From: a virus
Direction: 5' to 3' (one strand)
DNA: 64,000 bases
IMG/VR virus record: IMGVR_UViG_3300030099_006908
Coordinates: 30,846 to 94,845 of that record
A program made the translations under genes and the position numbers. The notes beneath the pieces were generated by a model that had not been told where the DNA came from, did not search any database, and saw nothing but the letters and a program-made list of their open reading frames with translations. Within the stretch, counting starts at the first letter, position 1, and every line of letters starts with the position of its first letter. This document shows positions 28,345 to 56,958 of this stretch, piece after piece.

Positions 28345-28345
28345 C

Positions 28346-28413: not shown

Positions 28414-30150
28414 ATGAGTGAAAAGTTTAGAAAATTAAGGATTCTGTGGTGCGGAGAAGCTAGCTTCCTGCATACCGGCTATGCAGTTTACGCAAAAGAG
28501 GTTCTTACCAGACTGTATAATACAGGCAAATACAAGATAGCAGAGATGGCTTGCTATGCTAGCCATGACAACCCCAATATTAATCAAGCCCCTTGGCGTG
28601 TATATCCTACAATGCCAACAAGCCAATCTGAAGCCGATGCTTATGCTTCAAATCAAACCTATCAATTTGGAGAGTGGAGGTTTGATGACATTTGCTTAGA
28701 CTTTAGACCAGATGTTGTGATAGATATAAGAGACTGGTGGATGATTGAGTACCAGCAAAGAGCCGCGTTTAGAAAATTTTACAAGTGGGCAATAATGCCA
28801 ACCGTAGACTCTCATCCACAGCAAGAACAATATCTAGCGACTTATATGGATGCAGATGCCGTGTTTACATACTCTGAATATGGCAGAGACGTTCTAGAAA
28901 ACGAAACGAACGGCCACATAAAAGTTGAGGGAGTTCCTTCTCCTGGAGCAAATTTTGATGCGCTGAAGCCACACCCAAATAAAAAACAACATAGAGAGCT
29001 TTTTGGGTTTGTCGATGATGTCAACATAATAGGAACGGTTATGAGAAATCAGCGTAGAAAACTTTATCCTAATTTAATAAGTTCCTTTAGGAATATGCTG
29101 GACAATAATCCAGACTTGCAATCAAACACATATTTATATCTTCATACTTCATATCCAGACCTGGGATGGGACCTGCCCTACTTTATAAAAAAGTACAACA
29201 TGGGCAGTCATACGATATTGACCTACAAATGTTTAAGCTGTGGAAGTTTCTTCCCGTCGTTTTTTCAGGGCGCCAAGACTTCTTGTCAAAAATGCGGAAA
29301 GATAAACGCTGTTTTACCAAACACAAGTCAAGGCCTAACAACTGAAGAGCTTGGGGCCGTTATGAATTGGTTTGATATTTATGTGCAATACTCTGTTTGC
29401 GAAGGATTTGGCATGCCACAAGTCGAAGCCGCCGCATGTGGTGTTCCATTAATTACAGTAAAATACTCTGCCATGGAAAGCGTTGGGGAAAAACTTAAAG
29501 CGGAATTCATAGAGCCAAAAAGCTTTTTCTGGGATTCTCCAACTCACTCAGAGAGAGCGATTCCTGATGATGAACAGCTATCAAAAAAAATCGCGGAGTT
29601 TGTTAGGTTGCCCAGAAGCATGAAAAGCAAGAAGGGCATGGATTGCTACATAGGAGCAAAAAGAAATTATACATGGGATAGGGCAGCAGCAATATGGGAA
29701 GACTATTTAGACAAAATTGAGCCAGAATCACACGAAGAAACATGGGAGTCTAAGCCAGAAATACACAGATATACAAATCAAATTCCAGATAACATACAAA
29801 ACAATAATGACTTTATTTCATGGGCAATTCAAAACGTTTGGGGTCAATCGGACAAAACAAATAGCTATGTGGCAATGAGACTTCTTAGAGATTTAAACGA
29901 CGGTAAGGCTCCTCAAGGCTTAGGAAGCATTCACTACGATGACAATAGCTTTGCAGACAATCAGATGTCGAGACAAGACTTTAGCGTAGAAGACGCTATG
30001 AACACTCTTGCTAATATGTGCGACTACAACAATTCTTGGGAAGAAAAAAGAGCGCAGTTATCTCAATCAAACGATTGGTCATCTATTCCCAGGCCATATT
30101 TTCTTTCTTTAGTAAAACCAGATATAAATACAACTAACCTAGCAGATTAA
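28414..30150 (+). CDS. GT-B (GT4-like) glycosyltransferase with zinc-ribbon insert
   Basis: TGYAVY, MRNQRRK, EGFGMPQVEAAACGVP; CLSC...CQKC insert. Confidence 0.85.
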   Translation: MSEKFRKLRILWCGEASFLHTGYAVYAKEVLTRLYNTGKYKIAEMACYASHDNPNINQAPWRVYPTMPTSQSEADAYASNQTYQFGEWRFDDICLDFRPDVVIDIRDWWMIEYQQRAAFRKFYKWAIMPTVDSHPQQEQYLATYMDADAVFTYSEYGRDVLENETNGHIKVEGVPSPGANFDALKPHPNKKQHRELFGFVDDVNIIGTVMRNQRRKLYPNLISSFRNMLDNNPDLQSNTYLYLHTSYPDLGWDLPYFIKKYNMGSHTILTYKCLSCGSFFPSFFQGAKTSCQKCGKINAVLPNTSQGLTTEELGAVMNWFDIYVQYSVCEGFGMPQVEAAACGVPLITVKYSAMESVGEKLKAEFIEPKSFFWDSPTHSERAIPDDEQLSKKIAEFVRLPRSMKSKKGMDCYIGAKRNYTWDRAAAIWEDYLDKIEPESHEETWESKPEIHRYTNQIPDNIQNNNDFISWAIQNVWGQSDKTNSYVAMRLLRDLNDGKAPQGLGSIHYDDNSFADNQMSRQDFSVEDAMNTLANMCDYNNSWEEKRAQLSQSNDWSSIPRPYFLSLVKPDINTTNLAD

Positions 30151-30154
30151 AAAA

Positions 30155-31339
30155 ATGAAAGTTCTTTACATAGGTTGCTACAGGGACGGAACTGGATGGG
30201 GTCACGCAGCCCAGGATTACATACTATCCCTGGACTCTGTTGGCGTAGACGTTGTTCCTAGATATATAAAGCTTAATAACAATGTTGTAGACATACCAGA
30301 AAAAATAAGTAAGCTTGAGCTAAAAAGCGACAAAGATTGCAATATTGTGATACAGCATGTTTTGCCACATATGATGGACTATAATGGAAATTTTGATAAA
30401 AATATAGCACTATATGTTACGGAAACAGACCACTGCAAAAATACAACGTGGCCAGAAAGAATAAGCTTAATGGATGAAGCTTGGGTTCCAAATAAATTTA
30501 TGGCAGAAACCGCTTGTGTAAATAGTAAAATTTCTTGCCCGCATTATGTAATTCCACACGCTGCAGACATGACAAAGTACCAAAAAGAGTATGAGCCATT
30601 AATTATACCGGAAATAGAGGGTAAATTTGTATTTTACTTTATAGGAGAAATTAACAGAAGAAAAAATCTAGGCGCAATGCTAAAGGCTTTTCACTTAGAA
30701 TTTAGACCCGAAGAGGACGTATCAATACTAATAAAAGCACATCTACCAGGACAAACAGAAGAAGAGTCGCATAGCTCGCTGTCCTCTATGTGTTCAAAAG
30801 TAAAGGAAGGGCTCAAGCTTTATGAAAAAGATTTTTATCATAAAGAGATTTTACTTTGCCAGTATTTACGCGAAGAAGAGATAATGAGACTACACAAAAC
30901 CTGCGATTGTTTTGTATCAACTGCATTTGGAGAGGCCTGGGGAATACCTATATTTGACGCAATGTCCATGGGGAAAACGCCTATATGCACAGAGACGGGC
31001 GGACCACAAGACTTTCTTGGAGACGGAGGCTATTTGGTGAAATCTAACAAAGAGTCTTGCTTTGGAGTTCTGGACTCTTTTTCTGAGCTTTATGTTGGAA
31101 ATGAATCTTGGGACGCTCCAAATATAAGTGAAATTAGAAGATGTATGAGGTCAGCGTTTGAAAATAAAAAAGAAAGAGAAAATAAAGCTCGAGCGGGTAT
31201 AGAGCAATCCTATAAATATTCGTACTCTAATATAGGGTTACTGATGAAAAGAACCATTGAGGGAGAAAATAAAAACCTTGCCTTTAATGTAAACAACGAA
31301 ATAATTAAGAAACACTGTATAGAAAATATCCTAAAATGA
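30155..31339 (+). CDS. GT4-like glycosyltransferase
   Basis: TGWGHAA, RRKNL, EAWGIPIFDAMSMGK. Confidence 0.85.
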   Translation: MKVLYIGCYRDGTGWGHAAQDYILSLDSVGVDVVPRYIKLNNNVVDIPEKISKLELKSDKDCNIVIQHVLPHMMDYNGNFDKNIALYVTETDHCKNTTWPERISLMDEAWVPNKFMAETACVNSKISCPHYVIPHAADMTKYQKEYEPLIIPEIEGKFVFYFIGEINRRKNLGAMLKAFHLEFRPEEDVSILIKAHLPGQTEEESHSSLSSMCSKVKEGLKLYEKDFYHKEILLCQYLREEEIMRLHKTCDCFVSTAFGEAWGIPIFDAMSMGKTPICTETGGPQDFLGDGGYLVKSNKESCFGVLDSFSELYVGNESWDAPNISEIRRCMRSAFENKKERENKARAGIEQSYKYSYSNIGLLMKRTIEGENKNLAFNVNNEIIKKHCIENILK

Positions 31340-32346
31340 GCAGAAGCGTAGTACAAAGTATACTAAATAATTCTACGAGAAAAAATCGTCCGTTGAACAT
31401 ATTAAGTTTTCCGACACATGAAAGGTATCAAGAAAACCTTTCTAAGACCGGCCACAATTTCTTCTTGTGGCAGGGCGAAGGAATAAAACCTTGGGTAGAA
31501 AATTACGCCGATGTTCCAAAGGGAACGGTTTTGCTAAACCCAGAAAAAGCCTCTGAACAGATACCGCTCAACATAGACATAGATTTAGTTTTGAGTCAAA
31601 ATAAGTTTGGTCAATTTAATATCGCTAAACAGATATCAGAGCAATTGATGGTGCCTTTAATAAGCCTAGAACACACGCTTCCAATGGAGACTTGGGGAAA
31701 TTATGAGATTCACCATCTTCGACAGATGCAAGGAGATGTGAATGTATTTATATCTGATTACAGCTTGAAAAAATGGGGTTGGTCAGAAGAGGATGCTCTT
31801 GTTATTCATCATGGGGTTGACACAGACTTGTTTTCTCCGCAAGATAAAATAAAAAGAGAACCAAAAGTTTTATCTGTTGTAAACGATTGGATTAATAGAG
31901 ACTGGTGTTGTGGATTCAATTTATGGTGTGAAACCACAGGATACCCAAACAGCGAATTACCCATTGATGTGGTAGGAGACACTCCTGGTTTATCTGAGGC
32001 GTCAAAATCAACACAAGACCTTATAAACAAATATAGCTCATCTAGAGTGTTTTTAAACACTTCTCTAATTTCTCCTGTACCGACATCTTTGTTAGAGGCG
32101 ATGTCATGCGGATGCGCAGTAGTGAGCACGAATAATTGCATGATTCCAGAGATAATAGAGAATGGTAAAAATGGATACATGTCAAATAATCCAAACGAGC
32201 TTAGAAGCTATGTGCAAAAACTTCTAGACAACGAAGAGCTTGCTGAACAAATTGGTAAAAATGCACGGGAAACTGTAATTTCAAATTTTGGATTAAAAAG
32301 TTTTGTATCAAGGTGGGAAAATTTATTTTTAGCCTGCACGGAGTAA
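31336..32346 (+). CDS. GT4-like glycosyltransferase
   Basis: HGVDTDLF, PTSLLEAMSCGCAVV, EIIENGKNG. Confidence 0.85.
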   Translation: MSRSVVQSILNNSTRKNRPLNILSFPTHERYQENLSKTGHNFFLWQGEGIKPWVENYADVPKGTVLLNPEKASEQIPLNIDIDLVLSQNKFGQFNIAKQISEQLMVPLISLEHTLPMETWGNYEIHHLRQMQGDVNVFISDYSLKKWGWSEEDALVIHHGVDTDLFSPQDKIKREPKVLSVVNDWINRDWCCGFNLWCETTGYPNSELPIDVVGDTPGLSEASKSTQDLINKYSSSRVFLNTSLISPVPTSLLEAMSCGCAVVSTNNCMIPEIIENGKNGYMSNNPNELRSYVQKLLDNEELAEQIGKNARETVISNFGLKSFVSRWENLFLACTE

Positions 32347-32350
32347 TTAT

Positions 32351-32836
32351 ATGAGTAAAGTAAATTTAATTTATGGGACAGGCGATGTGTTGCATACACA
32401 CATAAACATAAACCCCTTTGCCGAAAATCCCGACAATAAAAAAATAATAAGAGATGATATAATAAATATAGATAAGCATGTTGACGATGCAGAGCTTTCT
32501 GAGTTGGTTGCATATGATGTTTTAGATTATATTCCTCTGACTAAAGCCGAAGACGCGATTCATAATTGGGTTAAGAAAATTAGAATGGGAGGAAAGATTG
32601 TTCTTGGTGGAACAGACCTTATTGAGGTGTGTAAATCTCTTGCGGACTATAGGATAGACCTTGGAGAGGCAAACGTGTTAATACATGGGGAACAATCTAA
32701 ACCATATTTAATAAAAAGAGTGGGTTTTACATGCTTAGGATTATGTGATTACCTTCAGAATAAATATGCTTTTAAGATAATAAAAAAGAGGGTAAACAAT
32801 TATAAAATGGTTGTGGAGGCAGAGAGATGTCAGTAA
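32351..32836 (+). CDS. Short class-I SAM methyltransferase-like protein
   Basis: VNLIYGTG, DVLDYI..WVKKIRMGGKI; motif I is degenerate. Confidence 0.5.
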   Translation: MSKVNLIYGTGDVLHTHININPFAENPDNKKIIRDDIINIDKHVDDAELSELVAYDVLDYIPLTKAEDAIHNWVKKIRMGGKIVLGGTDLIEVCKSLADYRIDLGEANVLIHGEQSKPYLIKRVGFTCLGLCDYLQNKYAFKIIKKRVNNYKMVVEAERCQ

Positions 32837-33777
32837 AGAAAATATACAGTAAAGAAGAAGTAATGCGTGCTGTTGAGGACAACAAGGCGTTAGTAACTAG
32901 TTGTGACGGGTGCGTTTTTGCTTCAGAGAATGATATTACGAATGAAAATTTAGATGATTATTGCTCCGCTGGAAGGTTGTCTAAATTCAACGAAGTCGGG
33001 GCGGAAATAATTAGCATTGAGAGTAGGCAAAAAAATAAAAACTTTAAGCTTATAAAAGATAATATATGCAATATGCTTAGGGGAAAACCATGGGACGATA
33101 TAAAATTACAAAAAGGATATACACAGGAGGAGCTTGTAGGTGTCGCTAGAAAAGAGGTAAGCATCAAATGCACTTACTTAATATACTTCGATAATGACGA
33201 AGCAATAAAAAATGAAAATGATGAAAGCTTGAAAAGAAAAATCATAAAAGACAAGCTGCTCTGCATAGCGAAAACAATAAAAAGCGCTGAAAAAGGTATT
33301 TTAAAACCAGAAAACGTTGTTGTTATAAACAACTCTGTAATTGGCCCCTATGATTTCATCAATTATCTAAGAAGATTTATTTCTGAATTAAAAATAAATT
33401 TAAAGTGGTCCATGGAGCATATTAGCGACGATAGTATAAGGGCTTTAGATGACAAAGAAGAAGCTATGCATAGATGTGTTGATTTAGCCTCTAAGTCTAT
33501 AAAATCCATACATTGCTCAATCTTTGTTGCCGGAGACGATATTCCTACAAATTACTTAAGTGATATTGACTCTGCAATAAACGATGATTTGGAAAAGTTT
33601 TTAATATTAAAGCCAGAGGATGGAAAGAAGAGTGGAATGTTTGTTCAAAAGCTAGCCTATAAACAGTTTGGCGGAAATAAACAAAAAGAATTTATATCAA
33701 AAATTGAAGAAGAAGCGGAGTTTCAAAAGTGCCCACACTTAATACAGAGCTTGAGCAAAGTTGTCAAAAGCCAATAG
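32827..33777 (+). CDS. Hypothetical protein with Cys-rich N-terminus, possibly a degenerate GT-A
   Basis: CDGCVF..C..C; lies within the GT cluster. Confidence 0.45.
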   Translation: MSVKKIYSKEEVMRAVEDNKALVTSCDGCVFASENDITNENLDDYCSAGRLSKFNEVGAEIISIESRQKNKNFKLIKDNICNMLRGKPWDDIKLQKGYTQEELVGVARKEVSIKCTYLIYFDNDEAIKNENDESLKRKIIKDKLLCIAKTIKSAEKGILKPENVVVINNSVIGPYDFINYLRRFISELKINLKWSMEHISDDSIRALDDKEEAMHRCVDLASKSIKSIHCSIFVAGDDIPTNYLSDIDSAINDDLEKFLILKPEDGKKSGMFVQKLAYKQFGGNKQKEFISKIEEEAEFQKCPHLIQSLSKVVKSQ

Positions 33778-34475
33778 TAACCGTTGTTATACCCTGTCAC
33801 AATCACTCTGATATGGTATGCAACGCCATTGACAGCGTTATAATGCAGGACTATAGACCGATACAGATTATTGTAGTTGACGACGGCTCTACAGACAATC
33901 CCCAAGAAACGATTGAAAGCAAAGGCTATCCTGAAGAGGTTCCAATTAGCTTGATAAGAAATGAGCATGCTAAGGGCCCTTCTGCGGCAAGAAACGCCGC
34001 CATACAAGTTTCTTGGGATAGCACTGATGTGTTTATGATGCTTGATGCCGACGATTTGTATCTTCAGAATAAAGTATCGATGTCTGTAGAAAAATTTTTA
34101 AAAAACCCAGAGCTAATAGGGATTGTATACACAGACGCCATAATAAAAAACATTAATACTAAAACAGAAATACACGAATTTAGACAGCCATACAACAGGC
34201 AGTCCTTGGAAATGGAGTGCATAATTTCCAACACTCCCTTAATAAGTAAAAAAGCTTTGAGCATCGCTGGTGGCTACGATGAGGAAATGAGAACCTGCGA
34301 AGATTGGGACTTATGGCTTAGAATAACTGAAAACATGGTCGCCATACATATACCGGAGACTTTGCATGTATATCATGTAACTGGTAAAAATTCATCTGAT
34401 GTGGTTCCTCAAGAAGTATGGCAACAAAACTGGCAAAAAATAAGTCAAAGAATTATTCAAAGACAAAATGGCTAA
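33729..34475 (+). CDS. GT2 glycosyltransferase
   Basis: VVIPCHN, VVDDGSTD, GPSAARN, LDADD, EDWDLWLR. Confidence 0.92.
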   Translation: MPTLNTELEQSCQKPIVTVVIPCHNHSDMVCNAIDSVIMQDYRPIQIIVVDDGSTDNPQETIESKGYPEEVPISLIRNEHAKGPSAARNAAIQVSWDSTDVFMMLDADDLYLQNKVSMSVEKFLKNPELIGIVYTDAIIKNINTKTEIHEFRQPYNRQSLEMECIISNTPLISKKALSIAGGYDEEMRTCEDWDLWLRITENMVAIHIPETLHVYHVTGKNSSDVVPQEVWQQNWQKISQRIIQRQNG

Positions 34476-35211
34476 CTCAGCAAGAAGAAATATAACAAAC
34501 ACAAAAATTAAATTAAGTGTAAATTCTAGCGATTTGAGTATAATCATACCGGCCGCTGGCATGGGCCATAGGATGAAATCTTATGGTCCGAAAGCTCTAA
34601 TTAATTTATATAATGACACCAGCCTAATAGAGAGGCAGCTAGATATATTGTGGTCTGTATATCCAAAAGCAGAGATATTTATTGTGGTTGGCTTTGAGTC
34701 TGAAAAGATAAAGAAAAAACTAGTAAACTATCCCGTCAGATTTATACTCAACCCGATACATGAAACAACTAACGTATTATACAGTATTGGGCTCGGCATT
34801 CAGGCGACAATCTCAAAAGAGGTTATGATAGTATATGGAGATTTAATTTTCAACGACCCGGTAATAAGAAACATAAGAGGCTGTTCAAAAGCCGTCATAG
34901 AAAATTTTGGCTTTTTGAAAAAAACTGAGGTTGGCATAATAGAGCAAAACAACAATATAACAAATTTTTCTTTCGGTTTAGATACAAAATGGGCACAAAT
35001 AACATATTTGACAGACAAAGAGCTTGAACTTTTTAAACATATATCTTGCAGAAAAGATACGTCTCAGTGGTTTGGATACGAAGCGTTAAACTATGTTTTG
35101 GAGAATGGCGGAGAGATACAGCCTTTTATGCCAAAAAACATGAAAATTTTTGAAATAGACATGGCAAAAGATTTAGAAAAAATACCAAAAAGAAAATTGA
35201 CATTTGGATAG
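34468..35211 (+). CDS. Nucleotidyltransferase (LicC/choline-phosphate cytidylyltransferase-like)
   Basis: IIPAAGMGHRM...PKAL, VVGF, YGDLIF, EID...DL. Confidence 0.75.
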   Translation: MANSARRNITNTKIKLSVNSSDLSIIIPAAGMGHRMKSYGPKALINLYNDTSLIERQLDILWSVYPKAEIFIVVGFESEKIKKKLVNYPVRFILNPIHETTNVLYSIGLGIQATISKEVMIVYGDLIFNDPVIRNIRGCSKAVIENFGFLKKTEVGIIEQNNNITNFSFGLDTKWAQITYLTDKELELFKHISCRKDTSQWFGYEALNYVLENGGEIQPFMPKNMKIFEIDMAKDLEKIPKRKLTFG

Positions 35212-35230
35212 CTTGGGATATACAATAAAT

Positions 35231-35542
35231 ATGAGCGAATGCATAGACATATCTAAGTTAAAGAGAAATACAAAAATTATAGTAGAGACTGAGTCTACTG
35301 TTCTGGAAATAACTGTTGTAGGACCTAAAAGCCTAGCTGTTTCTGTTCATGGTGGCTTAAAGTTTATAAGGCCAACGAAATGCAAAATTTCTAAAGAAAT
35401 AAAGAGGGGAAAGTCAATTGCGTTCGTTTACCAAGATAAGGGTAAAACTGAAAAAATATCAACTACAAAAGTTGTTAGCGCAAGTGTTTTTAGCCCAGAT
35501 AACTCTTGGAGTTACGAAGCAATAGAAAAAAAAGAACAATGA
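35231..35542 (+). CDS. Hypothetical protein
   Basis: ATG 35231; ATGA overlap with the next gene. Confidence 0.5.
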   Translation: MSECIDISKLKRNTKIIVETESTVLEITVVGPKSLAVSVHGGLKFIRPTKCKISKEIKRGKSIAFVYQDKGKTEKISTTKVVSASVFSPDNSWSYEAIEKKEQ

Positions 35543-36519
35543 AAATACTTTTTAGACACGAAACAAACGCTTCTAACTATATATATACAGGTTTATCAAA
35601 CGCTTTGGCTGCAAAAGGCCACGACTGCGTGTTTTGGAATCAAGAATCTGTACCCGCATTTGATATGTTTGACTCTTTTGAGCCGGAAATATTTATAGGG
35701 CAGGGATACAATCTTGATAGGGCTACGATTAAGTGCTTAAAGTCTAGGCCCGACATAAAAGTTTTACTGAAAGTTGGCTGCTGGGGCCAAGTGTGCAGCG
35801 ATGTTGACATAGAAAAGTACCCTATACTTAATGCGACGGATGAAGAAATTAGAAACGTAGAAAGCATAGATTCTAAAAATCTTGTATTATTTAATTATGT
35901 CCATCCGAATAAAAAAGATTATCTCATGGGCTCATGGGAAAACTCGGTTTCAAAAACAATAGGCCTTCTTCCGGCAGCAGACCCGTCTGTTTATTTTCCT
36001 GATATTGCAGACGAGTCCTTAAAGTGCGACCTTTCTTTTGTTGGTGGTTATTGGCCGTACAAAGGTCAAAATCTAGACAAGTATATAATACCTCTTTGCT
36101 ACCCCATAGGAAAATACAATGTAAAAATATTTGGGAATCAAGCTTGGCCTGTATCTCAGTATATGGGTGTTATTGACGACAAAACTGTTAGAAAGCTTTT
36201 TTCTTCCTCATTGATATGCCCAAATGTTAGCGAACCACACGCAAATGTTTTTGGGTTTGAGGTAAACGAGAGAGTTTTCAAACTAGCGTCCTCTAAGGCT
36301 TTCTTTATATCAGACCCGATATCTTCTCTCACGGAAGATATATTTACCAAAGGGGAAGCTGTTGTAGCTACTGACCCAGATAATTTTCATTGTCTAGTTA
36401 AAGAGTTTATAAATAATCCAGAGCAAAGAGAAAAACACGCTGCCGCATGTTATCAAACAGTAATGAAAGAGCATACATACGCCCATAGAGCGCAACAAAT
36501 AATGGAGAGTTTTTCTTGA
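35539..36519 (+). CDS. CgeB-like GT-B glycosyltransferase
   Basis: AADPSVY, SFVGG, VNERVFKL, HTYAHRAQQI. Confidence 0.8.
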   Translation: MKILFRHETNASNYIYTGLSNALAAKGHDCVFWNQESVPAFDMFDSFEPEIFIGQGYNLDRATIKCLKSRPDIKVLLKVGCWGQVCSDVDIEKYPILNATDEEIRNVESIDSKNLVLFNYVHPNKKDYLMGSWENSVSKTIGLLPAADPSVYFPDIADESLKCDLSFVGGYWPYKGQNLDKYIIPLCYPIGKYNVKIFGNQAWPVSQYMGVIDDKTVRKLFSSSLICPNVSEPHANVFGFEVNERVFKLASSKAFFISDPISSLTEDIFTKGEAVVATDPDNFHCLVKEFINNPEQREKHAAACYQTVMKEHTYAHRAQQIMESFS

Positions 36520-37253
36520 GTATATTTACGTGCGACAATAAAGATGAATTTATTTACGACATTTTTCCTAATTCAAATCAAAGTTATTTTGTGGATGTTG
36601 GGGCTAGTGACGGTATCTATGGGAGCAACACCTTTTCGTTAGAAAAAAGAGGCTGGGGAGGAATCTGCATAGAGCCACACGAAGATATATTCGAAGAGCT
36701 TGAAAAAAATCGCTCCTGCAAAGTAAATAGTGGGCTCGTGTCTTTAGACAGAAGGCTTGTAGATTTCTCAAAACAAAAATACGAGCCACATATAAAAGGA
36801 AATCTTGGCAAAAAAATATACGGAGGCTTTTCTCATGCGTGGCGAGGCGGTAGCGGAATATCTGAAAATTTAAAAAGCCCGGTCGAAGCAAAGTCTTTTG
36901 AAAAAGTCAAAATAAAAACAAAAACTTTAACAGATATATTAGATGAAGAAAAAGCCCCTAGATACATAGAGCTTTTAGATATAGACACAGAAGGAAATGA
37001 CCTTAATGTTATTTTAGGTATTGATTGGGATAAGTATAGATTCGGCTGCATATTGGTTGAGTCAAATAATAAAGAGATAGAAGAAAATTTAAGAGACGTT
37101 GGGTATACAATGCAACAAGAATTTTCACAAGAATATCTATATGTAGATTTAAAAAAAGAAGGTTTAATCGAAAATGTTAAAAACGTCCAAAATATTGGTT
37201 ACTGGAGCGATAGGATTTTTGGGGAGACATGTTTGCCAGGAGCTTCTCCTTAG
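36516..37253 (+). CDS. FkbM-family methyltransferase
   Basis: FVDVGASDG..SNT..LE..GWGGICIEP, LDIDTEG. Confidence 0.85.
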   Translation: MSIFTCDNKDEFIYDIFPNSNQSYFVDVGASDGIYGSNTFSLEKRGWGGICIEPHEDIFEELEKNRSCKVNSGLVSLDRRLVDFSKQKYEPHIKGNLGKKIYGGFSHAWRGGSGISENLKSPVEAKSFEKVKIKTKTLTDILDEEKAPRYIELLDIDTEGNDLNVILGIDWDKYRFGCILVESNNKEIEENLRDVGYTMQQEFSQEYLYVDLKKEGLIENVKNVQNIGYWSDRIFGETCLPGASP

Positions 37254-49740: not shown

Positions 49741-50432
49741 AAAGAAGATTAGCTGTAATTCCAGCAAGAAGCGGAAGTAAAAGGTTTCCAGGAAAAAATT
49801 GGGCAAAACTAGGAGAATACCCTCTGTGGCAGTGGAGCGTTGATGTTGCCTCTGTTGCTTTTGAAACCACTGTCTTCACAACAGACTCAGAAAATCTTCT
49901 GTACGATGTTGTAAATAAAGAAGGAAGTTTTGTAGCAGGCCTACTAAGACCCAAAGAGCTGTCCTCAGACACCTCAAAGGTAATAGATACAGTAAATTGG
50001 ATTTATGATATATACGACAAAAGTCCAAGTAAGCCCGACGAAATTTGGCTGCTTCTTCCAACGTGCCCATTAAGGAGTCTTAAAGACGCAGTTGATGCTC
50101 AAGACAAATTAAGCGCCAACAATGACTGCGATGGAATAATTAGCATTACGGACTATGAGTTTCCACCTCAACTTGGATTGACGCATGAGGGTGAACAGAT
50201 AAGGGACTGGCATGAAAGTAAGCCTTGGCAGTCTGGAAACACTAGAAGCCAGGACCATGAAAAAATATACAGACCAAACGGAGCGCTTTACGGAATGAAG
50301 TGGGAGGCATTTAGACAAAACAGAAATTTCTATAAAGGAAAAATATGCAGTTACTATATGCCCAGAGAGCGTTCAGTTGATATAGATAATGAAATTGACC
50401 TTAAATTAGCAGAGGCGTTAATCAATGAATAA
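49737..50432 (+). CDS. neuA: CMP-nonulosonate synthetase (acylneuraminate cytidylyltransferase)
   Basis: IPARSGSKRFPGKN, LRPKELSSD, LLPTCPLR, RSQD, NGALY, SVDIDNEID. Confidence 0.9.
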   Translation: MKRRLAVIPARSGSKRFPGKNWAKLGEYPLWQWSVDVASVAFETTVFTTDSENLLYDVVNKEGSFVAGLLRPKELSSDTSKVIDTVNWIYDIYDKSPSKPDEIWLLLPTCPLRSLKDAVDAQDKLSANNDCDGIISITDYEFPPQLGLTHEGEQIRDWHESKPWQSGNTRSQDHEKIYRPNGALYGMKWEAFRQNRNFYKGKICSYYMPRERSVDIDNEIDLKLAEALINE

Positions 50433-51081
50433 CACAGCAGTTGACAGCGATGTTATAAAGACAATAAAAGATGTCGGCCTTTACATATATCCTGAGCTTA
50501 TTGATGCAGATATTGTTAAAAGGCTGAAATCTCAAACCCTGTCTCTTCTCGATGAGCGAGGAGACAAAAACTATAAGTTTGGAACAGCAATAAATATGGG
50601 CGGTCTAAACGAACAGGACGGGGATATTAGAAAGTTTTTTGATACTGATTACTTCAACAGTGTGGCGCGACAATACGGCAAGAGAGAAGCTAGGGCGGTT
50701 ATGGCCACGCACGACTATCAAAACGATAATGGCACAGACAGAAACGGCTTTCTTCATTTTGATAGAACGCATACATTCAAATTCTTTTTATATTTGACTG
50801 ATTGCGATGAATATAGCGGGGCGTTTAGATATGTTCCTGGTTCTAGGAAACTAGGTGAAACTTTAAGAACACAGGCAACCGTTGATGCTGGGGGAGACTA
50901 TAAAACAATAGCTAACAGATTAGAGTTAGATTATTTAGATTTAAACTATACCGCAGAGGATGCAGAGCCTCTTGAGGGTAAAGCTGGAACTTTATTTGCT
51001 TTTGACACAGACACCTTTCATATGGGTGGTGTGGTACAAGATGGAAAAGAAAGGATTGTAATTAGGTCGCATTATGTCTAA
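50425..51081 (+). CDS. PhyH-like 2-oxoglutarate/Fe(II) dioxygenase
   Basis: LHFD, FLYLTD..GAFRYVPGS, FDTDTFHMGG..R. Confidence 0.82.
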   Translation: MNNTAVDSDVIKTIKDVGLYIYPELIDADIVKRLKSQTLSLLDERGDKNYKFGTAINMGGLNEQDGDIRKFFDTDYFNSVARQYGKREARAVMATHDYQNDNGTDRNGFLHFDRTHTFKFFLYLTDCDEYSGAFRYVPGSRKLGETLRTQATVDAGGDYKTIANRLELDYLDLNYTAEDAEPLEGKAGTLFAFDTDTFHMGGVVQDGKERIVIRSHYV

Positions 51082-52249
51082 GATAAAATTTTTAGATTTG
51101 GGCACACAGCCCATTGCAAACGGGTTTTTAAAAGAATCAGACCTGGGTAAAGATGAGTATACATTCAATTTATCTGTTGGTATATGTAGTGAGACGTTTT
51201 TAGTTTCTCTTATGGATTTTGTAGACCCGCCAAAGATGTTTAATGAAAGCTATCCATTCCACACATCCGCTTCTCCAGTGATGGAGTCTCATTTTAAAAG
51301 AACCTCTAATTTGCTGTCAAAATTAAATCCAAGCAAGGTTATGGAGATAGGAAGTAATGACGGCGCGTTCTTAAAAAACTTTCATCCATCTAAGGCTATA
51401 TCAGTAGAACCATGCTCTAATTTTGCTAGACATACACAAGAACTTGGGTATACAACCTATGATGAGTTTTGGACCCAAGAACTTGCAGACCGCGTATGTT
51501 CATCTAATGGAAAGCAAGACTTAATATTCTCTGCGAATTGCATGTGCCATATACCTGACATAGAAGGTGCGTTTAAAGCCGTAGCCTCCTGCCTAGACAA
51601 AGACGGGGTTTTTGTTTTTGAAGACCCGTCACTGGTGTTTATGCTTATGAGAAACTCGTATGACCAAATATACGATGAACACGCACACATATTCTCCCTA
51701 CATTCTTTGTCTATAATGCTTAAAAGGGCCGGTCTAAAGATATGGAAGGTCGATGTTCTTGAGAATGTGCATGGAGGCTCTTGCAGGGTTTATGCCGTTC
51801 ATGAAAACAACCCCGTAAAAAAGGTTGATTCCACCCTAATGAAATTTGAGAGAATTTGCGGAATAAACAAGAGTGGTTTTGAAATATACTACTCATTCGC
51901 TAGGAACGTACAGAAAAGCAAAGAGGCTCTTGTTGACGCTCTATCTGCTTTAAAAGACAGAGGCAAGAAGGTCATTAGCTTTGGCGCAACTTCCAAGTCT
52001 ACCACAGTATTTAATTATTGCGGAATTGGAAATGAGTTAATAGACTATATAACTGATAGGACAGACGATAAAATTGGAAAATTCTCTCCTGGAAAGCATA
52101 TACCGATTATAGAAGAAGGAGTAGGGTTTGATGATTCTGTTGACGCTGCATTTCTTGGCGCGTGGAATTATAAAGACGCGATACTTACGAAGTATTCAGA
52201 TTTTAAAGGCTCTTGGATTACTCACGTTCCAGAGGTTTCTGTAATATGA
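51074..52249 (+). CDS. NDP-sugar C-methyltransferase
   Basis: LDLGTQPIANGF, EIGSNDG, YDQIYDEH, HGGS.R, GATSKSTT..NYCG, K.GKFSPG.HIPI, AWNY. Confidence 0.88.
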   Translation: MSKIKFLDLGTQPIANGFLKESDLGKDEYTFNLSVGICSETFLVSLMDFVDPPKMFNESYPFHTSASPVMESHFKRTSNLLSKLNPSKVMEIGSNDGAFLKNFHPSKAISVEPCSNFARHTQELGYTTYDEFWTQELADRVCSSNGKQDLIFSANCMCHIPDIEGAFKAVASCLDKDGVFVFEDPSLVFMLMRNSYDQIYDEHAHIFSLHSLSIMLKRAGLKIWKVDVLENVHGGSCRVYAVHENNPVKKVDSTLMKFERICGINKSGFEIYYSFARNVQKSKEALVDALSALKDRGKKVISFGATSKSTTVFNYCGIGNELIDYITDRTDDKIGKFSPGKHIPIIEEGVGFDDSVDAAFLGAWNYKDAILTKYSDFKGSWITHVPEVSVI

Positions 52250-53148
52250 AAATTTTAGTTACGGGCGGTCTTGGGCACATAGGCTCTTATATTATAAGAA
52301 CTTCGTTTGCAGAGAATGGAATTTCTGTTGTGGATGACTTATCTACCAACAGGTATTGTTCTTTGATGAATCTTCCATACCCTATTGATTTTATAAATGA
52401 CGGCTTTGAGAATCTAAGCGAAGAGTTTTTAAAAAAGTTTGACGTTGTTCTTCATCTTGCTGCCGTGACAGACGCGGCCAGAGGTGACTCTGAAAGCATT
52501 GAAAAAATCAATGTTGGACACACAAGAGACTTTATAAAAAAATTAGCTTCTATAGACAGTTCGCCTTTGTTTATATTTCCCTCATCAACAAGCGTTTATG
52601 GTACAGCTTCCGATATTGTTAAGGAAGATGACGAGAGCGTTTTAAAGCCACAAAGCTACTACGCTTCGTCTAAACTGGTTATAGAAAACTTTCTTAGAGA
52701 AAATTACCCTAGACACTTGATTCTCAGATTTGGAACAATATTTGGGGCAACTCCAGGCATGAGATTTCATACAGCGATTAATCACTTCTGCTGGGCCGCT
52801 TCGATGAAACAGCCCCTAGAAGTTTGGGAGCAAAACTATCACTACCACAGGCCATATCTTGACGTAAGAGACGCAGAAAGGTCAATTTCTCATCTTCTTT
52901 ACAAAGGCGTGGAAAGTCAAACATATAATGTACTTAGCGACAACTACAAATGTAGTGATATTATAAAAATAATAAAAGCTTACGTTCCCGACCTTGAAGT
53001 AAATATGGTCAAGACACCCCTTCTTAACCAGTTCTCCTACCTTGTAGACGACAGCAAGCTCAGTGCAACCGGGATAAATTTAAACGGAAGCATAAAACGA
53101 GGAATAAAAGAAACATTGGGATTACTTAAATGCGTAAAAAGATTTTAA
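52246..53148 (+). CDS. NAD-dependent sugar epimerase/dehydratase (extended SDR)
   Basis: ILVTGGLGHIG, SSTSVYG, YASSK, RFGTIFG. Confidence 0.85.
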   Translation: MKILVTGGLGHIGSYIIRTSFAENGISVVDDLSTNRYCSLMNLPYPIDFINDGFENLSEEFLKKFDVVLHLAAVTDAARGDSESIEKINVGHTRDFIKKLASIDSSPLFIFPSSTSVYGTASDIVKEDDESVLKPQSYYASSKLVIENFLRENYPRHLILRFGTIFGATPGMRFHTAINHFCWAASMKQPLEVWEQNYHYHRPYLDVRDAERSISHLLYKGVESQTYNVLSDNYKCSDIIKIIKAYVPDLEVNMVKTPLLNQFSYLVDDSKLSATGINLNGSIKRGIKETLGLLKCVKRF

Positions 53149-53843
53149 TTTCTGGCGGCTTAGGAAAGTTTGCAAAGCAATTATTAATTCAGGGTTCTGA
53201 GAACTTTGAAATATTCGCTCCTCCTAGAAAGGAAATGGATGTAAAAAATCCTCGTCAGATTTATTCTAAAATAATATCATGCAATCCAGACTATTTTGTT
53301 CATGCTGCGGCGATGACAAGACCGATGAAAAACCATGAGCTTGCACCAATGAAAAGCATGAAAATAAATATTGAAGGAACTTGTAATGTTGTTGATGCTT
53401 GCCACACAACAGGTATAAAGCTAATATATATATCAACAGATTATGTATACCCTGGAAAAGATGGCGACTATTCAGAGAAGGACGGCGTGCTTCCTTTCAC
53501 TAAATATGGATGGTCAAAACTTGGTGGGGAATGTGCCGTAAGAATGTACGATAATTCTCTTATACTAAGAATAGCTATGTGTGAAAAACCTTTCCCGCAT
53601 CCAGGAGCAATGATTGATGTGAAAAAAAGTTCTATTTTTAGTGATGAAGCTGCAAAAATTACTTTACAATTGCTAGGCGAGTTTGGTATAATAAATATTG
53701 GAGGACCGAATCAATCCATATACGATTTTGTAAGTTTGCATCAAAAGGTGAGCCCTATGACGAGGAATAGCGCGGACTCTACAATGATGCCTGACGTAAG
53801 TATGAACACGGATAAGCTAAATGAGATTTCACGAAGACGATAG
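53130..53843 (+). CDS. RmlD-like NDP-4-ketosugar reductase
   Basis: ISGGLGKFA, HAAA, YISTDYVY.G, YGWSKLGGE. Confidence 0.8.
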   Translation: MRKKILISGGLGKFAKQLLIQGSENFEIFAPPRKEMDVKNPRQIYSKIISCNPDYFVHAAAMTRPMKNHELAPMKSMKINIEGTCNVVDACHTTGIKLIYISTDYVYPGKDGDYSEKDGVLPFTKYGWSKLGGECAVRMYDNSLILRIAMCEKPFPHPGAMIDVKKSSIFSDEAAKITLQLLGEFGIINIGGPNQSIYDFVSLHQKVSPMTRNSADSTMMPDVSMNTDKLNEISRRR

Positions 53844-54204
53844 AGCGCAAAGATTTTGCGACATATTTCCAGAAGCCGGTGGACAAACAATGGTGTCTAG
53901 GATAAGAACCCCTGGTCATGTTGTGGCTTGGCACAGGCACAAAATACAGCACGACTATTGGTGTTGCTTGCAAGGTTCTTTTAAGGTTGGTCTCGCAAAA
54001 GAAAACGGAGACTTTGAATTCGTATATCTCTCTGACAAGCAGCCGAGAACCATACATATACCTCCGGGGATATATCATGGATATATGGCGCTAGAACCAA
54101 ATTCTATTTTATTGTATTACATGGACCAAGCATACGACCCATCAGACGAATATAGGGCTGAGGTAGGTTATTTCGGTGATGATTGGGGAATACCAAATAA
54201 ATGA
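53821..54204 (+). CDS. RmlC-like cupin sugar 3,5-epimerase
   Basis: HEDDR, AWHRH..Q.D, IPPGIYHGY, YDPSDE. Confidence 0.78.
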   Translation: MRFHEDDRAQRFCDIFPEAGGQTMVSRIRTPGHVVAWHRHKIQHDYWCCLQGSFKVGLAKENGDFEFVYLSDKQPRTIHIPPGIYHGYMALEPNSILLYYMDQAYDPSDEYRAEVGYFGDDWGIPNK

Positions 54205-55226
54205 GATTATTTAAAAAAAATAAAAAATTAAAACTATTCAACATAAATGACTATGTAATAGATACATCTAAATTTAATCACCTCTTACATGGCAGTGTTG
54301 AGGAAGAGCTTGAAGATAGATTCGCTGAATATGTGGGAGCTAAATACGCATGTGTTGCAAGCAGCGCAAGCAATCTGATTTATCTTTCAATGATAAGCAT
54401 TCTAGGGATACCTGAAGAAATACTAAAGAAAAATCCAGTAAAAATACCCAGCATGATACCGATTGTGGTTCCAAATATCATACACAACATCGGAGTTCCG
54501 TGCTGCTGGACAAATGATTGTGATTGGGTTGGCTCTGCTTACACTCTTTATGATACCGAAAAAGCGTTTGAAGAAATGAGTCTCGAAAGCGACCAAGAAT
54601 ATAACGCTTTTAAAATAATAGACTCTGCACAAGAAGTTACAAAAAATCAATTCTCTGAACAGGCTGAGGACGGAGACTTGATGATATTTAGCCTGTATCC
54701 TACAAAGCCTGTGGGAGGGATGGACGGAGGAATAATTGTTTCAAATAGCAAAGCAAAAATAGATTGGTTCCGCACAGCGAGCCACCTCGGAATATCCAAC
54801 GTAGAAATGAGTGCGGGAAGCTGGCAAAGAACCCTTGCCTTTCCAGGGTGGAAAATGCACCCAAATTCATCACAGTGCTATGTGGCTCTTGAGAATCTAA
54901 AAAAACTAGATGCTAAAAATAAGAGGCTGTCGCATATACGAGAAAAATATAATGAAGCCTTTTCTCTTAAAAATAATAGCTGTCACCTTTATCGCATAGA
55001 GGTAGAAGATAGGGATAGATTCTCAAAAAAGATGAGAGAATCAAATATAGAAACGGGAATACATTATTTACCGGCACACATGTACTCTTTTTATGATATA
55101 AAAATTGTAGAAGATATGTCAGAGACAGAACTAAAGTCGATGTCCACTGTAAGTATACCGTTCAATGAGTCTCTTACAGAAAGAAATGTTGATTTTATAA
55201 TAAGAAAGATTAAAGAAGTATTATGA
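54201..55226 (+). CDS. DegT/DnrJ/EryC1/StrS sugar aminotransferase
   Basis: EDRFAEYVGAKYA, IDSAQ, FSLYPTKPVGGMDGG, HLY, GIHY, SIP. Confidence 0.85.
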   Translation: MRLFKKNKKLKLFNINDYVIDTSKFNHLLHGSVEEELEDRFAEYVGAKYACVASSASNLIYLSMISILGIPEEILKKNPVKIPSMIPIVVPNIIHNIGVPCCWTNDCDWVGSAYTLYDTEKAFEEMSLESDQEYNAFKIIDSAQEVTKNQFSEQAEDGDLMIFSLYPTKPVGGMDGGIIVSNSKAKIDWFRTASHLGISNVEMSAGSWQRTLAFPGWKMHPNSSQCYVALENLKKLDAKNKRLSHIREKYNEAFSLKNNSCHLYRIEVEDRDRFSKKMRESNIETGIHYLPAHMYSFYDIKIVEDMSETELKSMSTVSIPFNESLTERNVDFIIRKIKEVL

Positions 55227-56137
55227 AAATAATGACAACGGGAGGCAGGGGTTTTATTGGGAGCCACTTTGTTGAAAAGATTCTTGGGATGAACAATGTT
55301 TCTTCGGTAATAGACTATGACTGCATGACTTATGCGGCAAGCAAGTCCCTTCCATTTGACAGCAATCCTAAGTATGAACACGTAAATGAAAATATACAAG
55401 ACATACAAAGGCTTCCTCCGAATATAGATTATATCGTTAATTTTGCTGCAGAAAGTCATGTAGATAATTCTATAGCCTCTCCATCAATTTTTATAGAGAG
55501 TAATGTTTTAGGTGTTTATAATTTGCTGGAGCTTATACGAGGAAAAGTTTATTCAAGGCCTCAGCTTATACATATTAGCACAGATGAGGTTTATGGAGAC
55601 GCAGACGACGGAGACAATCATTTTGACGAAAACCACAAGCTAACTCCCAGCAACCCATATGCTGGCTCAAAGGCTGCGGCAGAAATGATGATTATGTCCT
55701 ATGGCAGAACTTTTGGGATAGACTATAAGATAACAAGAAGCACAAATAATTATGGGCCAAGGCAGTATCCAGAAAAGCTAATACCAAAGTGTATAGATTC
55801 AATCAGCTCCGGTAAAAAAATACCTTTGCATGGAGATGGCAGCTATGTTAGAGACTGGATTCATGTTAGGGATAACGTAGACGGAATATGGTATGTTATC
55901 GAATACGGAGAAAACAGAAACGTATACAATATAAGTGGCGACAACCCTTTGTCTAATATCGAGGTTGTTAAGAAAGTTTGTTCTTGGTTTGGAATAGAGG
56001 ACTACGAAAGCCATGTTGAATTTGTGGAGAATAGGCTAGGTCAAGATGCAAGATATTCAATCAATAGCGTAAAAGCAGAGAACTTGGGATGGTCAAGAAA
56101 GTTTGGAAAGGGATTAACTAACTATGTTAAACATTAA
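55223..56137 (+). CDS. rmlB: dTDP-glucose 4,6-dehydratase
   Basis: TGGRGFIGSHF, NFAAESHVDNSI, HISTDEVYG, PYAGSKA, NNYGPRQYPEKLIP, RDWIHV. Confidence 0.92.
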   Translation: MKIMTTGGRGFIGSHFVEKILGMNNVSSVIDYDCMTYAASKSLPFDSNPKYEHVNENIQDIQRLPPNIDYIVNFAAESHVDNSIASPSIFIESNVLGVYNLLELIRGKVYSRPQLIHISTDEVYGDADDGDNHFDENHKLTPSNPYAGSKAAAEMMIMSYGRTFGIDYKITRSTNNYGPRQYPEKLIPKCIDSISSGKKIPLHGDGSYVRDWIHVRDNVDGIWYVIEYGENRNVYNISGDNPLSNIEVVKKVCSWFGIEDYESHVEFVENRLGQDARYSINSVKAENLGWSRKFGKGLTNYVKH

Positions 56138-56507
56138 TAAAGACGAAAGAGGAAATCTAATATCAATTAACGACTTAATTACAAGCGTCCCCTTTACTGT
56201 AAAGAGATTTATGGATATAAGCAATGTGCCAAATGGTCAGACTAGGGGTTATCACGCACACAAAACCAATAAACAATTTCTTTTGTGCTTTAGTGGCCGG
56301 GTTGTGGTTAGAACCGTAGCTAAAGATGAACAGGGTGTTCTTGTAGATGAGTCTCATGAATTAAATGAGGGTGATTTTTTATACATGCCAGAAATGACAT
56401 GGGGGGAACAAACATATTACGATAATGCCGTCTTGCATGTTCTGTGTTCAAAAAAATATGACGAGGAAGATTATGTTAGAGACTACAACGAATTTAAAAA
56501 GCTTTAG
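56124..56507 (+). CDS. fdtA: FdtA/QdtA-type dTDP-4-keto-6-deoxyglucose 3,4-ketoisomerase
   Basis: DERGNL, PFTVKR, RGYHAH, YDEEDYVRDY. Confidence 0.82.
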   Translation: MLNINKDERGNLISINDLITSVPFTVKRFMDISNVPNGQTRGYHAHKTNKQFLLCFSGRVVVRTVAKDEQGVLVDESHELNEGDFLYMPEMTWGEQTYYDNAVLHVLCSKKYDEEDYVRDYNEFKKL

Positions 56508-56958
56508 TGTGCTTGTTTCTGACACTGGGGCTAGTCAGCTTTCCTTTTGTGTAATAAGCGAAATAAACAATCTGCCAGCTATTTGCCCAAACATAGACGG
56601 AATAGTGTTTTATGAAAACAAACATAAAAACTGTTTACCGGCAAATTTTTCTGTCATGCACATATCGTCTGCATGGGGAATGTCTGGTCCGGTGATTGCC
56701 ACCTCTTTTTCTACGGCCTATAAGCTTTTAAATTTTCCTTCAAGCAAAAAATTCTTCTATGTGTGGAATTTAGAGTGGATTACTGGAAATGATATAAAGC
56801 AGTACGAGAGATATAAAAAGGTATATCAAGACACATCCTTGAGTCTTATTGCCAGAAGCGAACCTCATAAAAAAATAATAGAAAATGCATTTAACAGAGA
56901 TGTTGAGCATGTCGTTTCAGACTTTAATATGTCAGAAATTTTGGAGATTATAAAATGA
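56473..56958 (+). CDS. Hypothetical protein, possible GT-B N-terminal half
   Basis: VIATS..TA, FYVWNLEW, IARS..H. Confidence 0.4.
   Translation: MLETTTNLKSFSVLVSDTGASQLSFCVISEINNLPAICPNIDGIVFYENKHKNCLPANFSVMHISSAWGMSGPVIATSFSTAYKLLNFPSSKKFFYVWNLEWITGNDIKQYERYKKVYQDTSLSLIARSEPHKKIIENAFNRDVEHVVSDFNMSEILEIIK

Follow-up and report, generated by a model that had tools for sequence, protein, structure and literature searches.

Multi-gene clusters for glycan synthesis have been known in marine phages since P-SSM2, and what they glycosylate has never been shown. In cyanomyoviruses these lipopolysaccharide or cell-wall clusters comprise 15 genes in P-SSM2 and 22 genes in S-SCSM2R, the latter including 13 glycosyltransferases, KdsA and KdsB (PMC7824862; PMC12801897). 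Here we describe an island of 34 genes, at positions 28414-56958 (+ strand) of a 64,000-nucleotide stretch of viral DNA. This stretch, referred to below as the window, makes up the 3′ two-thirds of an IMG/VR contig of 94,845 bases (IMGVR_UViG_3300030099_006908; G000). From its sequence, the island appears to be a real, phage-encoded and self-contained glycan factory. Since large glycan clusters in marine phages are already published, the kind is known. What is new is the scale, the presence of four sulfotransferases in the genome, and a virus-restricted GT29 transferase that lacks a membrane anchor and has interchangeable NeuB and KdsA-like partners. Also new is that the locus, with a conserved line of transferases and variable decorations, occupies a fixed position and characterizes a very large group of uncultured phages.

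The island shares with the cyanomyovirus clusters a marine phage setting, multiple transferase families, SDR epimerases, cupin isomerases, nucleotidyltransferases and an octulosonate pathway. Those clusters are likewise polymorphic between related phages, and the published work did not test their function (PMC7824862; PMC12801897). Unlike the cyanomyoviruses, the present phage is not T4-like; it is unrelated to them, encodes DnaE and has a very long tape measure. Its cluster differs in having 34 genes, four sulfotransferases genome-wide, a GT29 and a NeuB/KdsA swap, and in keeping its place and order throughout the family.

Two other kinds of virus offer instructive parallels. The clusters of Megavirinae and chloroviruses have 6 to 33 genes, combine nucleotide-sugar pathways with soluble transferases, vary between clades, and make rare bacterial-type and methylated sugars without the host secretory route (PMC10117803; PMC9614988; PMC8456856). 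The island has the same character, being one clade-variable cluster that joins nucleotide-sugar pathways and transferases (compare PMC10117803). The giant viruses have eukaryotic hosts, however, and their glycans have been shown on virions, whereas here we deal with a tailed phage known from its genes alone. In mycobacteriophages of the Che8/Corndog type, the subunits of the capsid and the tail tube are modified while still in the cytoplasm, by soluble transferases that the phage encodes (Freeman 2023, as cited in PMC12619734 and PMC12801897), and two transferases have been reported in the F1 mycobacteriophage Maravista (PMC11256854). These systems need no exporter, which is also what is proposed here. 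They have few transferases and a known acceptor, the C-termini of the capsid and tail-tube subunits. Here, in contrast, a 34-gene island lies in the replication block, and there is no conserved Ser/Thr tail on structural proteins.

The Genome and Its Relatives

Neither half of the window had a megablast match among GenBank phages, and no cultured relatives came up when the capsid protein and the core GT4 (encoded first in the island) were used as protein queries. The capsid protein is only distantly similar to its counterpart in Bacillus phage G, and the replicase is of the DnaE type. Close relatives of G000 were retrieved via DnaE. The related viral contigs used below are G001, G002, G006, G007 and G008, and related loci carry L-numbers.

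The most informative relative is G001 (148,761 bases), which is collinear with G000 and circularly permuted relative to it. Since the end and start of G001 abut inside the ribonucleotide reductase (RNR) gene on G000 (window 9849-12329; end of L018, start of L011), with about 174 bases missing, G001 very probably represents a nearly complete genome of some 149 kb, although its completeness according to CheckV is 60%. Its − strand block encodes the terminase, portal and major capsid protein, together with a tape measure of 2374 aa and distal tail proteins of very large size. G000 covers about 60% of the genome, and statements on the remaining part (about 55 kb) rest on the relatives. In the window, + strand genes run unbroken from 72 to 59194, followed by a convergent − strand block (ORF listing).

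The island lies between the same two flanks in G001, G002 and G006 as in G000, and independent contigs are collinear across both of its borders. The initial annotation had taken the island to be phage-encoded, and its recurrence at one and the same position across many independent viral contigs bears this out. Between G000 and G001 the flank proteins are 92-96% identical, as against 36% to 97% for the island proteins, a mosaic pattern that indicates exchange of alleles.

A Large Tailored Glycan Pathway

The island consists of exactly 34 back-to-back + strand ORFs, most of them overlapping by a few bases or touching (ORF listing), in agreement with the initial count of about 34, and makes up about one-fifth of a genome of roughly 150 kb. 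Family matches support the view that it encodes a large tailored glycan pathway. As to the enzymes, the initial annotation was right to within one or two genes. It had about ten glycosyltransferases, of which we find nine with Pfam support (two of them sub-threshold), and about six methyltransferases, of which we find five. The two sulfotransferases, kinase, two nucleotidyltransferases, dioxygenase and nucleotide-sugar enzymes it had listed are all matched by Pfam.

The first gene (28414-30150) encodes the core GT4, a 578-aa protein that bears a CxxC..CxxC insert and is extended at its C-terminus by a helical segment (Pfam; AlphaFold2). Two more GT4 glycosyltransferases follow (30155-32346; genes at 30155 and 31336; Pfam), which synteny places in the basal locus also. 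The next two ORFs (32351-33777) have no Pfam match and are syntenic in distant relatives. One, of 161 aa, is methyltransferase-like by eye; the other, of 316 aa (32827), has weak GT-A-like rows in the Atlas of predicted structures, no Atlas feature match and a poor Atlas model. Then come a GT2 glycosyltransferase (33729) and a MobA/IspD/GlmU-N-like sugar-phosphate nucleotidyltransferase (34468), the latter a core gene (33729-35211; Pfam, NCBIfam).

What may be called the assembly line occupies 35204-42108. Its first part holds a 112-aa ORF, a Glyco_trans_1_2 glycosyltransferase (35506), an FkbM methyltransferase (36516), a GDP-fucose-synthase-like SDR (37174) and a weak, sub-threshold GT2 (38148). 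The rest comprises a second FkbM methyltransferase (39056), a weak, sub-threshold GT8 (39628), a GT2 (40614) and a class I methyltransferase (41488). It leads into the 210-aa GT29-like transferase without membrane anchor (42105-42737; Pfam, E 3e-19) and the acid-sugar cassette (42734-46326; Pfam, NCBIfam). In the cassette are a 617-aa fusion of NeuB, SAF and AP_endonuc_2 (xylose-isomerase-like) domains (42734), a DHDPS/aldolase-like protein (44580) and an APH-family kinase (45478).

The remainder is devoted largely to tailoring and donor synthesis. An O-methyltransferase of the CmcI/rhamnosyl type (46304) is followed by a 342-aa ORF (46978), GT-A-like by motifs seen by eye, and by two sulfotransferases (47927 and 48865; region 46304-49740; Pfam, by eye). 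A CMP-sugar synthetase (49737; PseF/KdsB-like) and a 2-oxoglutarate dioxygenase of the PhyH family (50425) span 49737-51081 (Pfam, NCBIfam). The nucleoside diphosphate (NDP)-deoxyhexose set at 51074-56507 begins with a sugar C-methyltransferase (51074), two SDR epimerase/reductases (52213 and 53130) and a small cupin (53821). It continues with a DegT aminotransferase (54201), a dTDP-glucose 4,6-dehydratase (55223) and an FdtA-type 3,4-ketoisomerase (56124), the dTDP-sugar genes proper spanning 52213-56507. The last core gene, of about 159 aa, is placed by alignments at 56479-56958 (the listed ORF starts at 56425).

Five of the 34 ORFs, that at 46978 among them, had no Pfam family match. No island enzyme reaches the NCBIfam equivalog level, so the products cannot be named, and sugar identities rest on family-level matches.

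Glycan-related genes are not confined to the island. The first 30 kb of G000 carry genes for Sulfotransfer_4, FkbM methyltransferase, GT32-like, Sulfotransfer_2, GT4 and GT47/RXYLT1-like proteins, which brings the sulfotransferases of G000 to four. In G001 and G006 a GDP-mannose 4,6-dehydratase gene (Gmd, E 2e-115) heads the terminase-portal-capsid operon, and its product seems to pair with the GDP-fucose-synthase-like SDR of the island. With its 34 genes, seven more glycan-related genes in G000 and Gmd in the relatives, this is the largest and most complete tailed-phage case found.

A Fixed Locus with Variable Decorations

The core GT4 has 585 cluster representatives at E ≤ 1e-30, the automatic clusters being 95-100% viral, and is encoded on at least 572 IMG/VR viral contigs. 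Its gene lies just after the split DnaE in 79 of the best 80 loci and is the first locus gene in every relative. The basal islands, the smallest, measure about 7 kb and already have five transferases and one nucleotidyltransferase. Their genes are SSB, one GT32-like, three of GT4, the nucleotidyltransferase, one GT2-like, ORFs of unknown type and a last gene of roughly 160 aa. In more distant relatives, whose DnaE is 32-46% identical, the first GT4 and the last gene persist along with the nucleotidyltransferase (34468), which is kept also in the mini-islands of G007 and G008. The 45 homologues of the last core gene are all from marine metagenomes.

In the contigs found through GT29 (L052-L061), the genes of the first half follow one another in the same order although their products are only 25-60% identical. 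It starts with GT4, GT4, the 161-aa ORF, the 316-aa ORF, GT2, the nucleotidyltransferase and Glyco_trans_1_2, and ends with SDR, GT2, FkbM, GT8-like, GT2, methyltransferase and GT29. In the second half the sugar-nucleotide genes are reshuffled among these contigs, and the second sulfotransferase (48865) is absent from G001 and G006. The island thus appears to be an expanded form of a positionally fixed hallmark locus of a very large uncultured phage group, and the locus itself looks like something that belongs to the phage family, not an accessory acquired for a particular host.

The AlphaFold2 model of the core GT4 (predicted local distance difference test, pLDDT, 92) is that of a GT-B enzyme, in which the CxxC...CxxC insert is near-invariant and the C-terminal extension helical. 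The best match in the PDB is a chlorovirus NY-2A transferase (3oy2, E 1.5e-18). The next structural matches are enzymes with soluble acceptors (MshA, BshA, GlgM, sucrose-phosphate synthase and OtsA), and BFVD returned only generic viral GT4s. Some members of the family (P0167, P0168, P0201, P0263 and others) reach 900-1300 aa and match over two or three separate stretches, apparently tandem duplications within one polypeptide. The last core gene was also modeled well (pLDDT 91); Foldseek weakly matches its product to one Rossmann half of a GT-B transferase, and the matches are too weak to assign a function from the fold.

The GT29 and Its Exchangeable Cassette

The GT29 (42105) matches PF00777 with 69.9 bits against a cut-off of 23 and has all four sialylmotifs: L, S, III (HY.E) and VS (H....E). 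In an alignment of 23 sequences (A3) the invariant residues are G32, R43-F44-N45, G147, P161, G165, H177-Y178, H189 and E194. It has the Pfam match and the four motifs in common with the Golgi enzymes of animals and the GT29 proteins of plants. The luminal GT29 enzymes of animals are defined by a type II anchor and by a pair of cysteines in the L and S motifs. The phage protein, in contrast, has only 210 aa and no hydrophobic segment that could serve as a membrane anchor. No L-motif cysteine is conserved across the 23 sequences; the S-motif cysteine is present in 19 of them.

All of the 169 homologues found are metagenomic, and among 185,579 species genomes only one had a match. Together these point to a GT29 type that is essentially virus-restricted, another difference from the animal enzymes. 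The single genomic match is on CALSMY010000008.1 (L152; 168,711 bases, 38.7% GC) of an 'Opitutales' metagenome-assembled genome, where it has a GT8-like neighbor. No other phage markers were matched on this contig, which may be a mis-binned virus.

As in a sialyltransferase setting, the GT29 gene is accompanied by genes for a CMP-sugar synthetase and an acid-sugar synthase. In the window the synthase is NeuB (NeuB domain, E 1.5e-79; SAF domain, E 1e-9, in the 42734 fusion). The NeuB cassette (window 42735-46328) is absent from the five relatives searched, with no counterpart in G001 or G006. In these two the same slot holds a DHDPS-like gene plus a DAHP_synth_1/KdsA-like gene (E 4e-41), and the neighbors of the slot are retained, GT29 being 89% and the CMP-transferase 86% identical. 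Over 22 viral contigs there is a recurrent module of GT29, an aldolase-like protein, a KdsA-like protein (less often NeuB) and the CMP-transferase. Among these contigs are two very large ones, of jumbo phage or giant virus size (L063, 458,729 bases; L067, 370,804 bases), and on one of the two Gmd lies close to the module.

Because the CMP-transferase and either NeuB (in the window) or a KdsA-like protein (in relatives) adjoin GT29, the context argues for a CMP-2-keto-3-deoxy acid as the donor. Plant 'sialyltransferase-like' GT29 proteins have been proposed to transfer 3-deoxy-manno-octulosonate (Kdo) or 3-deoxy-lyxo-heptulosarate (Dha). As most relatives pair GT29 with a KdsA-like gene, the usual donor of the family may be an 8-carbon acid. 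The nonulosonate cap that the initial annotation proposed is plausible for this phage with its NeuB. The closest relatives, though, have the 8-carbon, KdsA-like cassette, and the NeuB of the window stays below the cut-offs by which products are named (NeuB_NnaB, 313 vs. 399.65 bits; PseI, 238 vs. 340).

No Carrier or Export Genes Found

The locus has much in common with O-antigen and capsule loci of the Wzx/Wzy or ABC type: several glycosyltransferases together with nucleotide-sugar synthesis genes, methyl- and sulfo-tailoring, and mosaic variation. Unlike them, it has no initiating phosphoglycosyl transferase, flippase, polymerase, chain-length regulator, ABC transporter or ligase. In all island proteins the mean Kyte-Doolittle hydropathy stays below 1.6 in every 19-residue window, with a maximum of 1.58. 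All 34 are therefore predicted to be soluble, in keeping with the initial remark that the island encodes no multi-spanning membrane protein.

The same note had reported no exporter and no polyprenyl-phosphate initiating transferase, and this absence extends well beyond the island, to the rest of G000, the 149-kb relative and about 100 related loci. Bac_transf (PF02397) is absent from G000, G001, G002, G006, G007 and G008, whereas the control was matched in 9-10 of 14 genomes. By a crude hydropathy scan, in which no family hidden Markov models for Wzx or Wzy were run, G000 and G001 have no ORF with four or more hydrophobic segments, hence no multi-spanning protein, WecA-type candidates included. 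About 1.2 Mb of related loci have none either, except for one antisense ORF inside a tape-measure gene.

What Is Glycosylated?

We favor a scheme in which the phage glycosylates its own virions. Host RNA polymerase would transcribe the island from a sigma-70-type promoter along with the replication genes. Soluble enzymes would convert host dTDP-glucose, GDP-mannose, UDP-sugars, 3′-phosphoadenosine-5′-phosphosulfate (PAPS) and S-adenosylmethionine (SAM) to rare donors. One of these would be a 6-deoxyhexose of 3-amino or C-methyl type, another a GDP-6-deoxyhexose, and a third a 2-keto-3-deoxy acid that NeuB produces and that is activated with CMP. Some nine to twelve soluble transferases, the conserved line, would then assemble a cytoplasmic oligosaccharide without a polyprenyl carrier, which would be O-methylated, sulfated and capped by the anchor-less GT29-type transferase. 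The order of these steps, like the choice of sugars, we infer from the gene families. The final acceptor, by analogy with mycobacteriophages, chloroviruses and Megavirinae, would be one or more phage virion proteins. Exchange of the decorations and of the acid-sugar cassette between related phages would give each lineage a distinct surface chemistry.

That the acceptor is a virion protein, the first choice of the initial annotation too, we put forward tentatively, as a proposition in which belief nearly balances doubt. The pointers are the lack of carrier and export genes, the lack of a tyrosine integrase, the family-wide conservation of the locus and the fixed order of its transferases. To these may be added Gmd in the late operon of the relatives, the likeness of the core GT4 to a chlorovirus transferase, and a GT29 devoid of both anchor and L-motif cysteine.

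Several observations pull the other way. The transferase genes lie in the replication block, with early-type placement and promoter, and not among the structural or late genes. There is no conserved acceptor: a poly-Ser/Thr tail (24 of 30 residues) at the end of a 2542-aa tail-end protein of G001 is not kept in G000, G002 or G006, and the C-termini of the capsid and other proteins are ordinary. Only about 60% of the genome is in G000, and the remainder was judged from relatives. Soluble GT4, GT2 and GT8 enzymes also extend undecaprenyl-linked glycans; since the transferase families of the island are of this soluble or peripheral sort, the host could supply initiation, flipping and ligation. 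Finally, comparable cyanophage clusters have been read as diversifying the host O-antigen or capsule against superinfection (PMC7824862; PMC12801897).

The 2542-aa protein of G001 (45056-52684, − strand; L013:5056-12684) is encoded directly beside the island and matches DUF2927. It ends in GGGGGGASSTSTTTTTTSSTTTTTSS..TTTTSY, the only such Ser/Thr tract in the genome. As a candidate acceptor site this tail, not being conserved, is a weak hint only.

Next to virion glycosylation, remodeling of the host envelope survives best. Phage transferases would act on host undecaprenyl-pyrophosphate-linked or lipid A-core intermediates at the inner membrane face, and the altered glycan would then be displayed by machinery of the host: its initiating transferase, an exporter of the Wzx or ABC kind, and its ligase. 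The benefit would lie in keeping rival phages from adsorbing, or in keeping progeny off infected cells and debris. We take this for a serious contender, albeit one we rather doubt. O-antigen and capsule loci draw on the same enzyme families, and as the non-initiating transferases of such loci are, as is well established, normally soluble, the solubility of the island proteins is to be expected. The apparent early/middle expression of sigma-70 type is frequent for exclusion functions, and swapping of cassettes between close relatives has been taken, for cyanophages, to indicate that surface antigens are being diversified (PMC7824862, section 3.4.10; PMC12801897). However, a nine-gene transferase order kept at 25-60% identity over a very large group fits host-specific acceptors poorly, and a GT29 type found in one of 185,579 species genomes speaks against such a role too. 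The host Wzx and ligase would, moreover, have to accept a large, foreign, sulfated and methylated glycan. No tyrosine integrase was found in the near-complete 149-kb relative and the lifestyle appears lytic; seroconversion of lysogens is therefore unlikely as the purpose.

The island could instead make a soluble product: a free or small-molecule-anchored sulfated, methylated oligosaccharide, much like a glycoside-type secondary metabolite, or a glycosylated cytoplasmic protein of the host, released only at lysis. The structures nearest to the core GT4, from MshA to OtsA, do use small soluble acceptors, and the set of C-methyltransferase, aminotransferase, ketoisomerase and PhyH protein is one we take to resemble deoxysugar tailoring in antibiotic pathways. 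Iyer and colleagues raised a secondary-metabolite reading for another cyanophage cluster (PMC7824862). We nonetheless judge this improbable. Pfam scans of the island and flank ORFs scanned gave no polyketide synthase, nonribosomal peptide synthetase or terpene synthase, the benefit to the phage is not evident, and fold neighbors of a GT4 are a weak guide to its acceptor.

Still less probable, to the point of being hardly credible, is hypermodification of DNA, in which some or all of the transferases would add sugars to the bases of the phage DNA and so protect it from restriction. There is precedent for phage transferases that place glycans on 5-hydroxymethylcytosine (Pyle 2024 preprint, 10.1101/2023.12.21.572611). 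The locus always lies inside the replication/recombination block, directly after the polymerase, a deoxynucleoside monophosphate (dNMP) kinase is present, and there are weak Pfam matches to GT4-conflict and TAGT. Against this, no route to a hydroxymethyl-pyrimidine, as used in DNA glycosylation of the T-even or 5mYOX type, was found. ThyA-family hydroxymethylase (PF00303) and ThyX (PF02511) are absent from G000, G001 and G006 by searches with positive controls. TET/JBP (PF12851) was not found in a search without a positive control, and cytosine methyltransferase was not searched for. To our knowledge, at least ten transferases, sulfation, methylation and an acid-sugar cap far exceed any DNA glycan described. 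DNA, which had been offered as the alternative acceptor, thus gains no positive support.

Misassembly of a bacterial segment into the phage contig has, in our estimate, a chance of next to nil. No supporting evidence was found; the GC of the island, at 0.34-0.40, is slightly below the 0.40-0.44 of its flanks. Misassembly is excluded because the same junctions, DnaE-C/GT4 and last core gene/HNH, recur in many independent contigs from different metagenomes, with strand and gene packing continuous.

Promoter, Flanks and Neighboring Genes

A sigma-70-like promoter, TTGACA-18-(TG)TATCAT, is found at 28346-28375 (+ strand) in the sole intergenic gap (28345-28413), directly after the DnaE-C stop. Its -35 element and the context after the stop are conserved in G001, G002 and G006. 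Since promoter-like matches overall show no excess over shuffled sequences, the support for it is positional only. The initial claim of a single such promoter ahead of the island thus stands as to the element, its place and its conserved -35, and is without statistical support. The early region of G000 has many sites close to the consensus TTGACA-N17-TATAAT, and for this reason the island looks like an early/middle transcription unit served by host sigma-70.

A sigma factor gene ahead of the island holds for G007 only. There a 168-aa protein with sigma-70 regions 2 and 4 is encoded between DnaE-C and the first GT4 (L045:2310-2816), whereas the ORFs in the same slot of G002, G006 and G008 are unrelated. 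G000 has a weak sigma-70 region match only, at window 2291-2512.

The island had been described as flanked by phage replication genes, and upstream this is so: RNR, a RecA-like protein, DnaB, primase, dNMP kinase, a PD-(D/E)XK nuclease and the split DnaE. DnaE (window 23366-28344) is divided into a gene for PHP plus core and one for finger/HHH, with one or two ORFs between them, a 242-aa ORF in all relatives and a 196-aa ORF in G002 and not in G001. Between the nuclease and DnaE, at window 22161-23381, is a saccharopine-dehydrogenase-family gene with NADP-binding and C-terminal domains, which may encode a polyamine enzyme of the carboxynorspermidine or homospermidine type within the replication block.

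Downstream, the boundary is formed by HNH/homing-endonuclease-like, annealase-like and Whirly-like genes (56955-59194, + strand), possibly in the same transcription unit. A strong bidirectional intrinsic terminator with a 9-bp stem (59201-59224) separates the + block from the convergent tail genes. Of these, a distal tail protein of more than 1253 aa (60212-64000, − strand), convergent with the island, runs off the contig. It is 29% identical to the distal tail protein of G001, which has 1356 aa and is encoded in the structural module downstream of the tape measure.

The early region has further genes of note. A 942-aa FG-GAP-repeat protein is encoded among the early genes (window 2788-5616, + strand). 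Beside RNR, a 376-aa ORF (window 8681-9811, + strand) is 49% identical to a 412-aa protein of the G001 structural module (75665-76903), and would seem to be a structural-gene paralogue placed in the early region. An IMPDH/GMP-reductase-family gene and a nucleoside 2-deoxyribosyltransferase-like gene are at G000 14076-15209 and 17531-18115 (L048), the latter directly 3′ of the Sulfotransfer_2 gene.

Implications

Since the locus marks a group of at least 572 IMG/VR contigs, the answer to what is glycosylated would apply to many abundant marine viruses. The anchor-less GT29 is a compact, soluble candidate enzyme for the transfer of keto-deoxy acid sugars, and its interchangeable NeuB and KdsA-like partners are a natural experiment in donor specificity.

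The fullest form of our proposal is that a large uncultured group of marine tailed phages coats its virions with a complex sulfated and methylated oligosaccharide, which phage enzymes alone would assemble in the host cytoplasm with no lipid carrier. A cassette of NeuB or KdsA-like type would determine whether the cap, added by a cytoplasmic and cysteine-poor GT29, has nine carbons or eight, and exchange of genes would change the serotype. As a whole we advance it with some diffidence, thinking it may well be right and somewhat more readily wrong. If it is true, the virion glycan coat would be the bacteriophage counterpart of fibril glycosylation in giant viruses. With the virion as acceptor, the particles would carry sulfated, methylated and acidic glycans, which would bear on their adsorption to particles and mucus, on grazing and decay, and on the recycling of viral organic matter.

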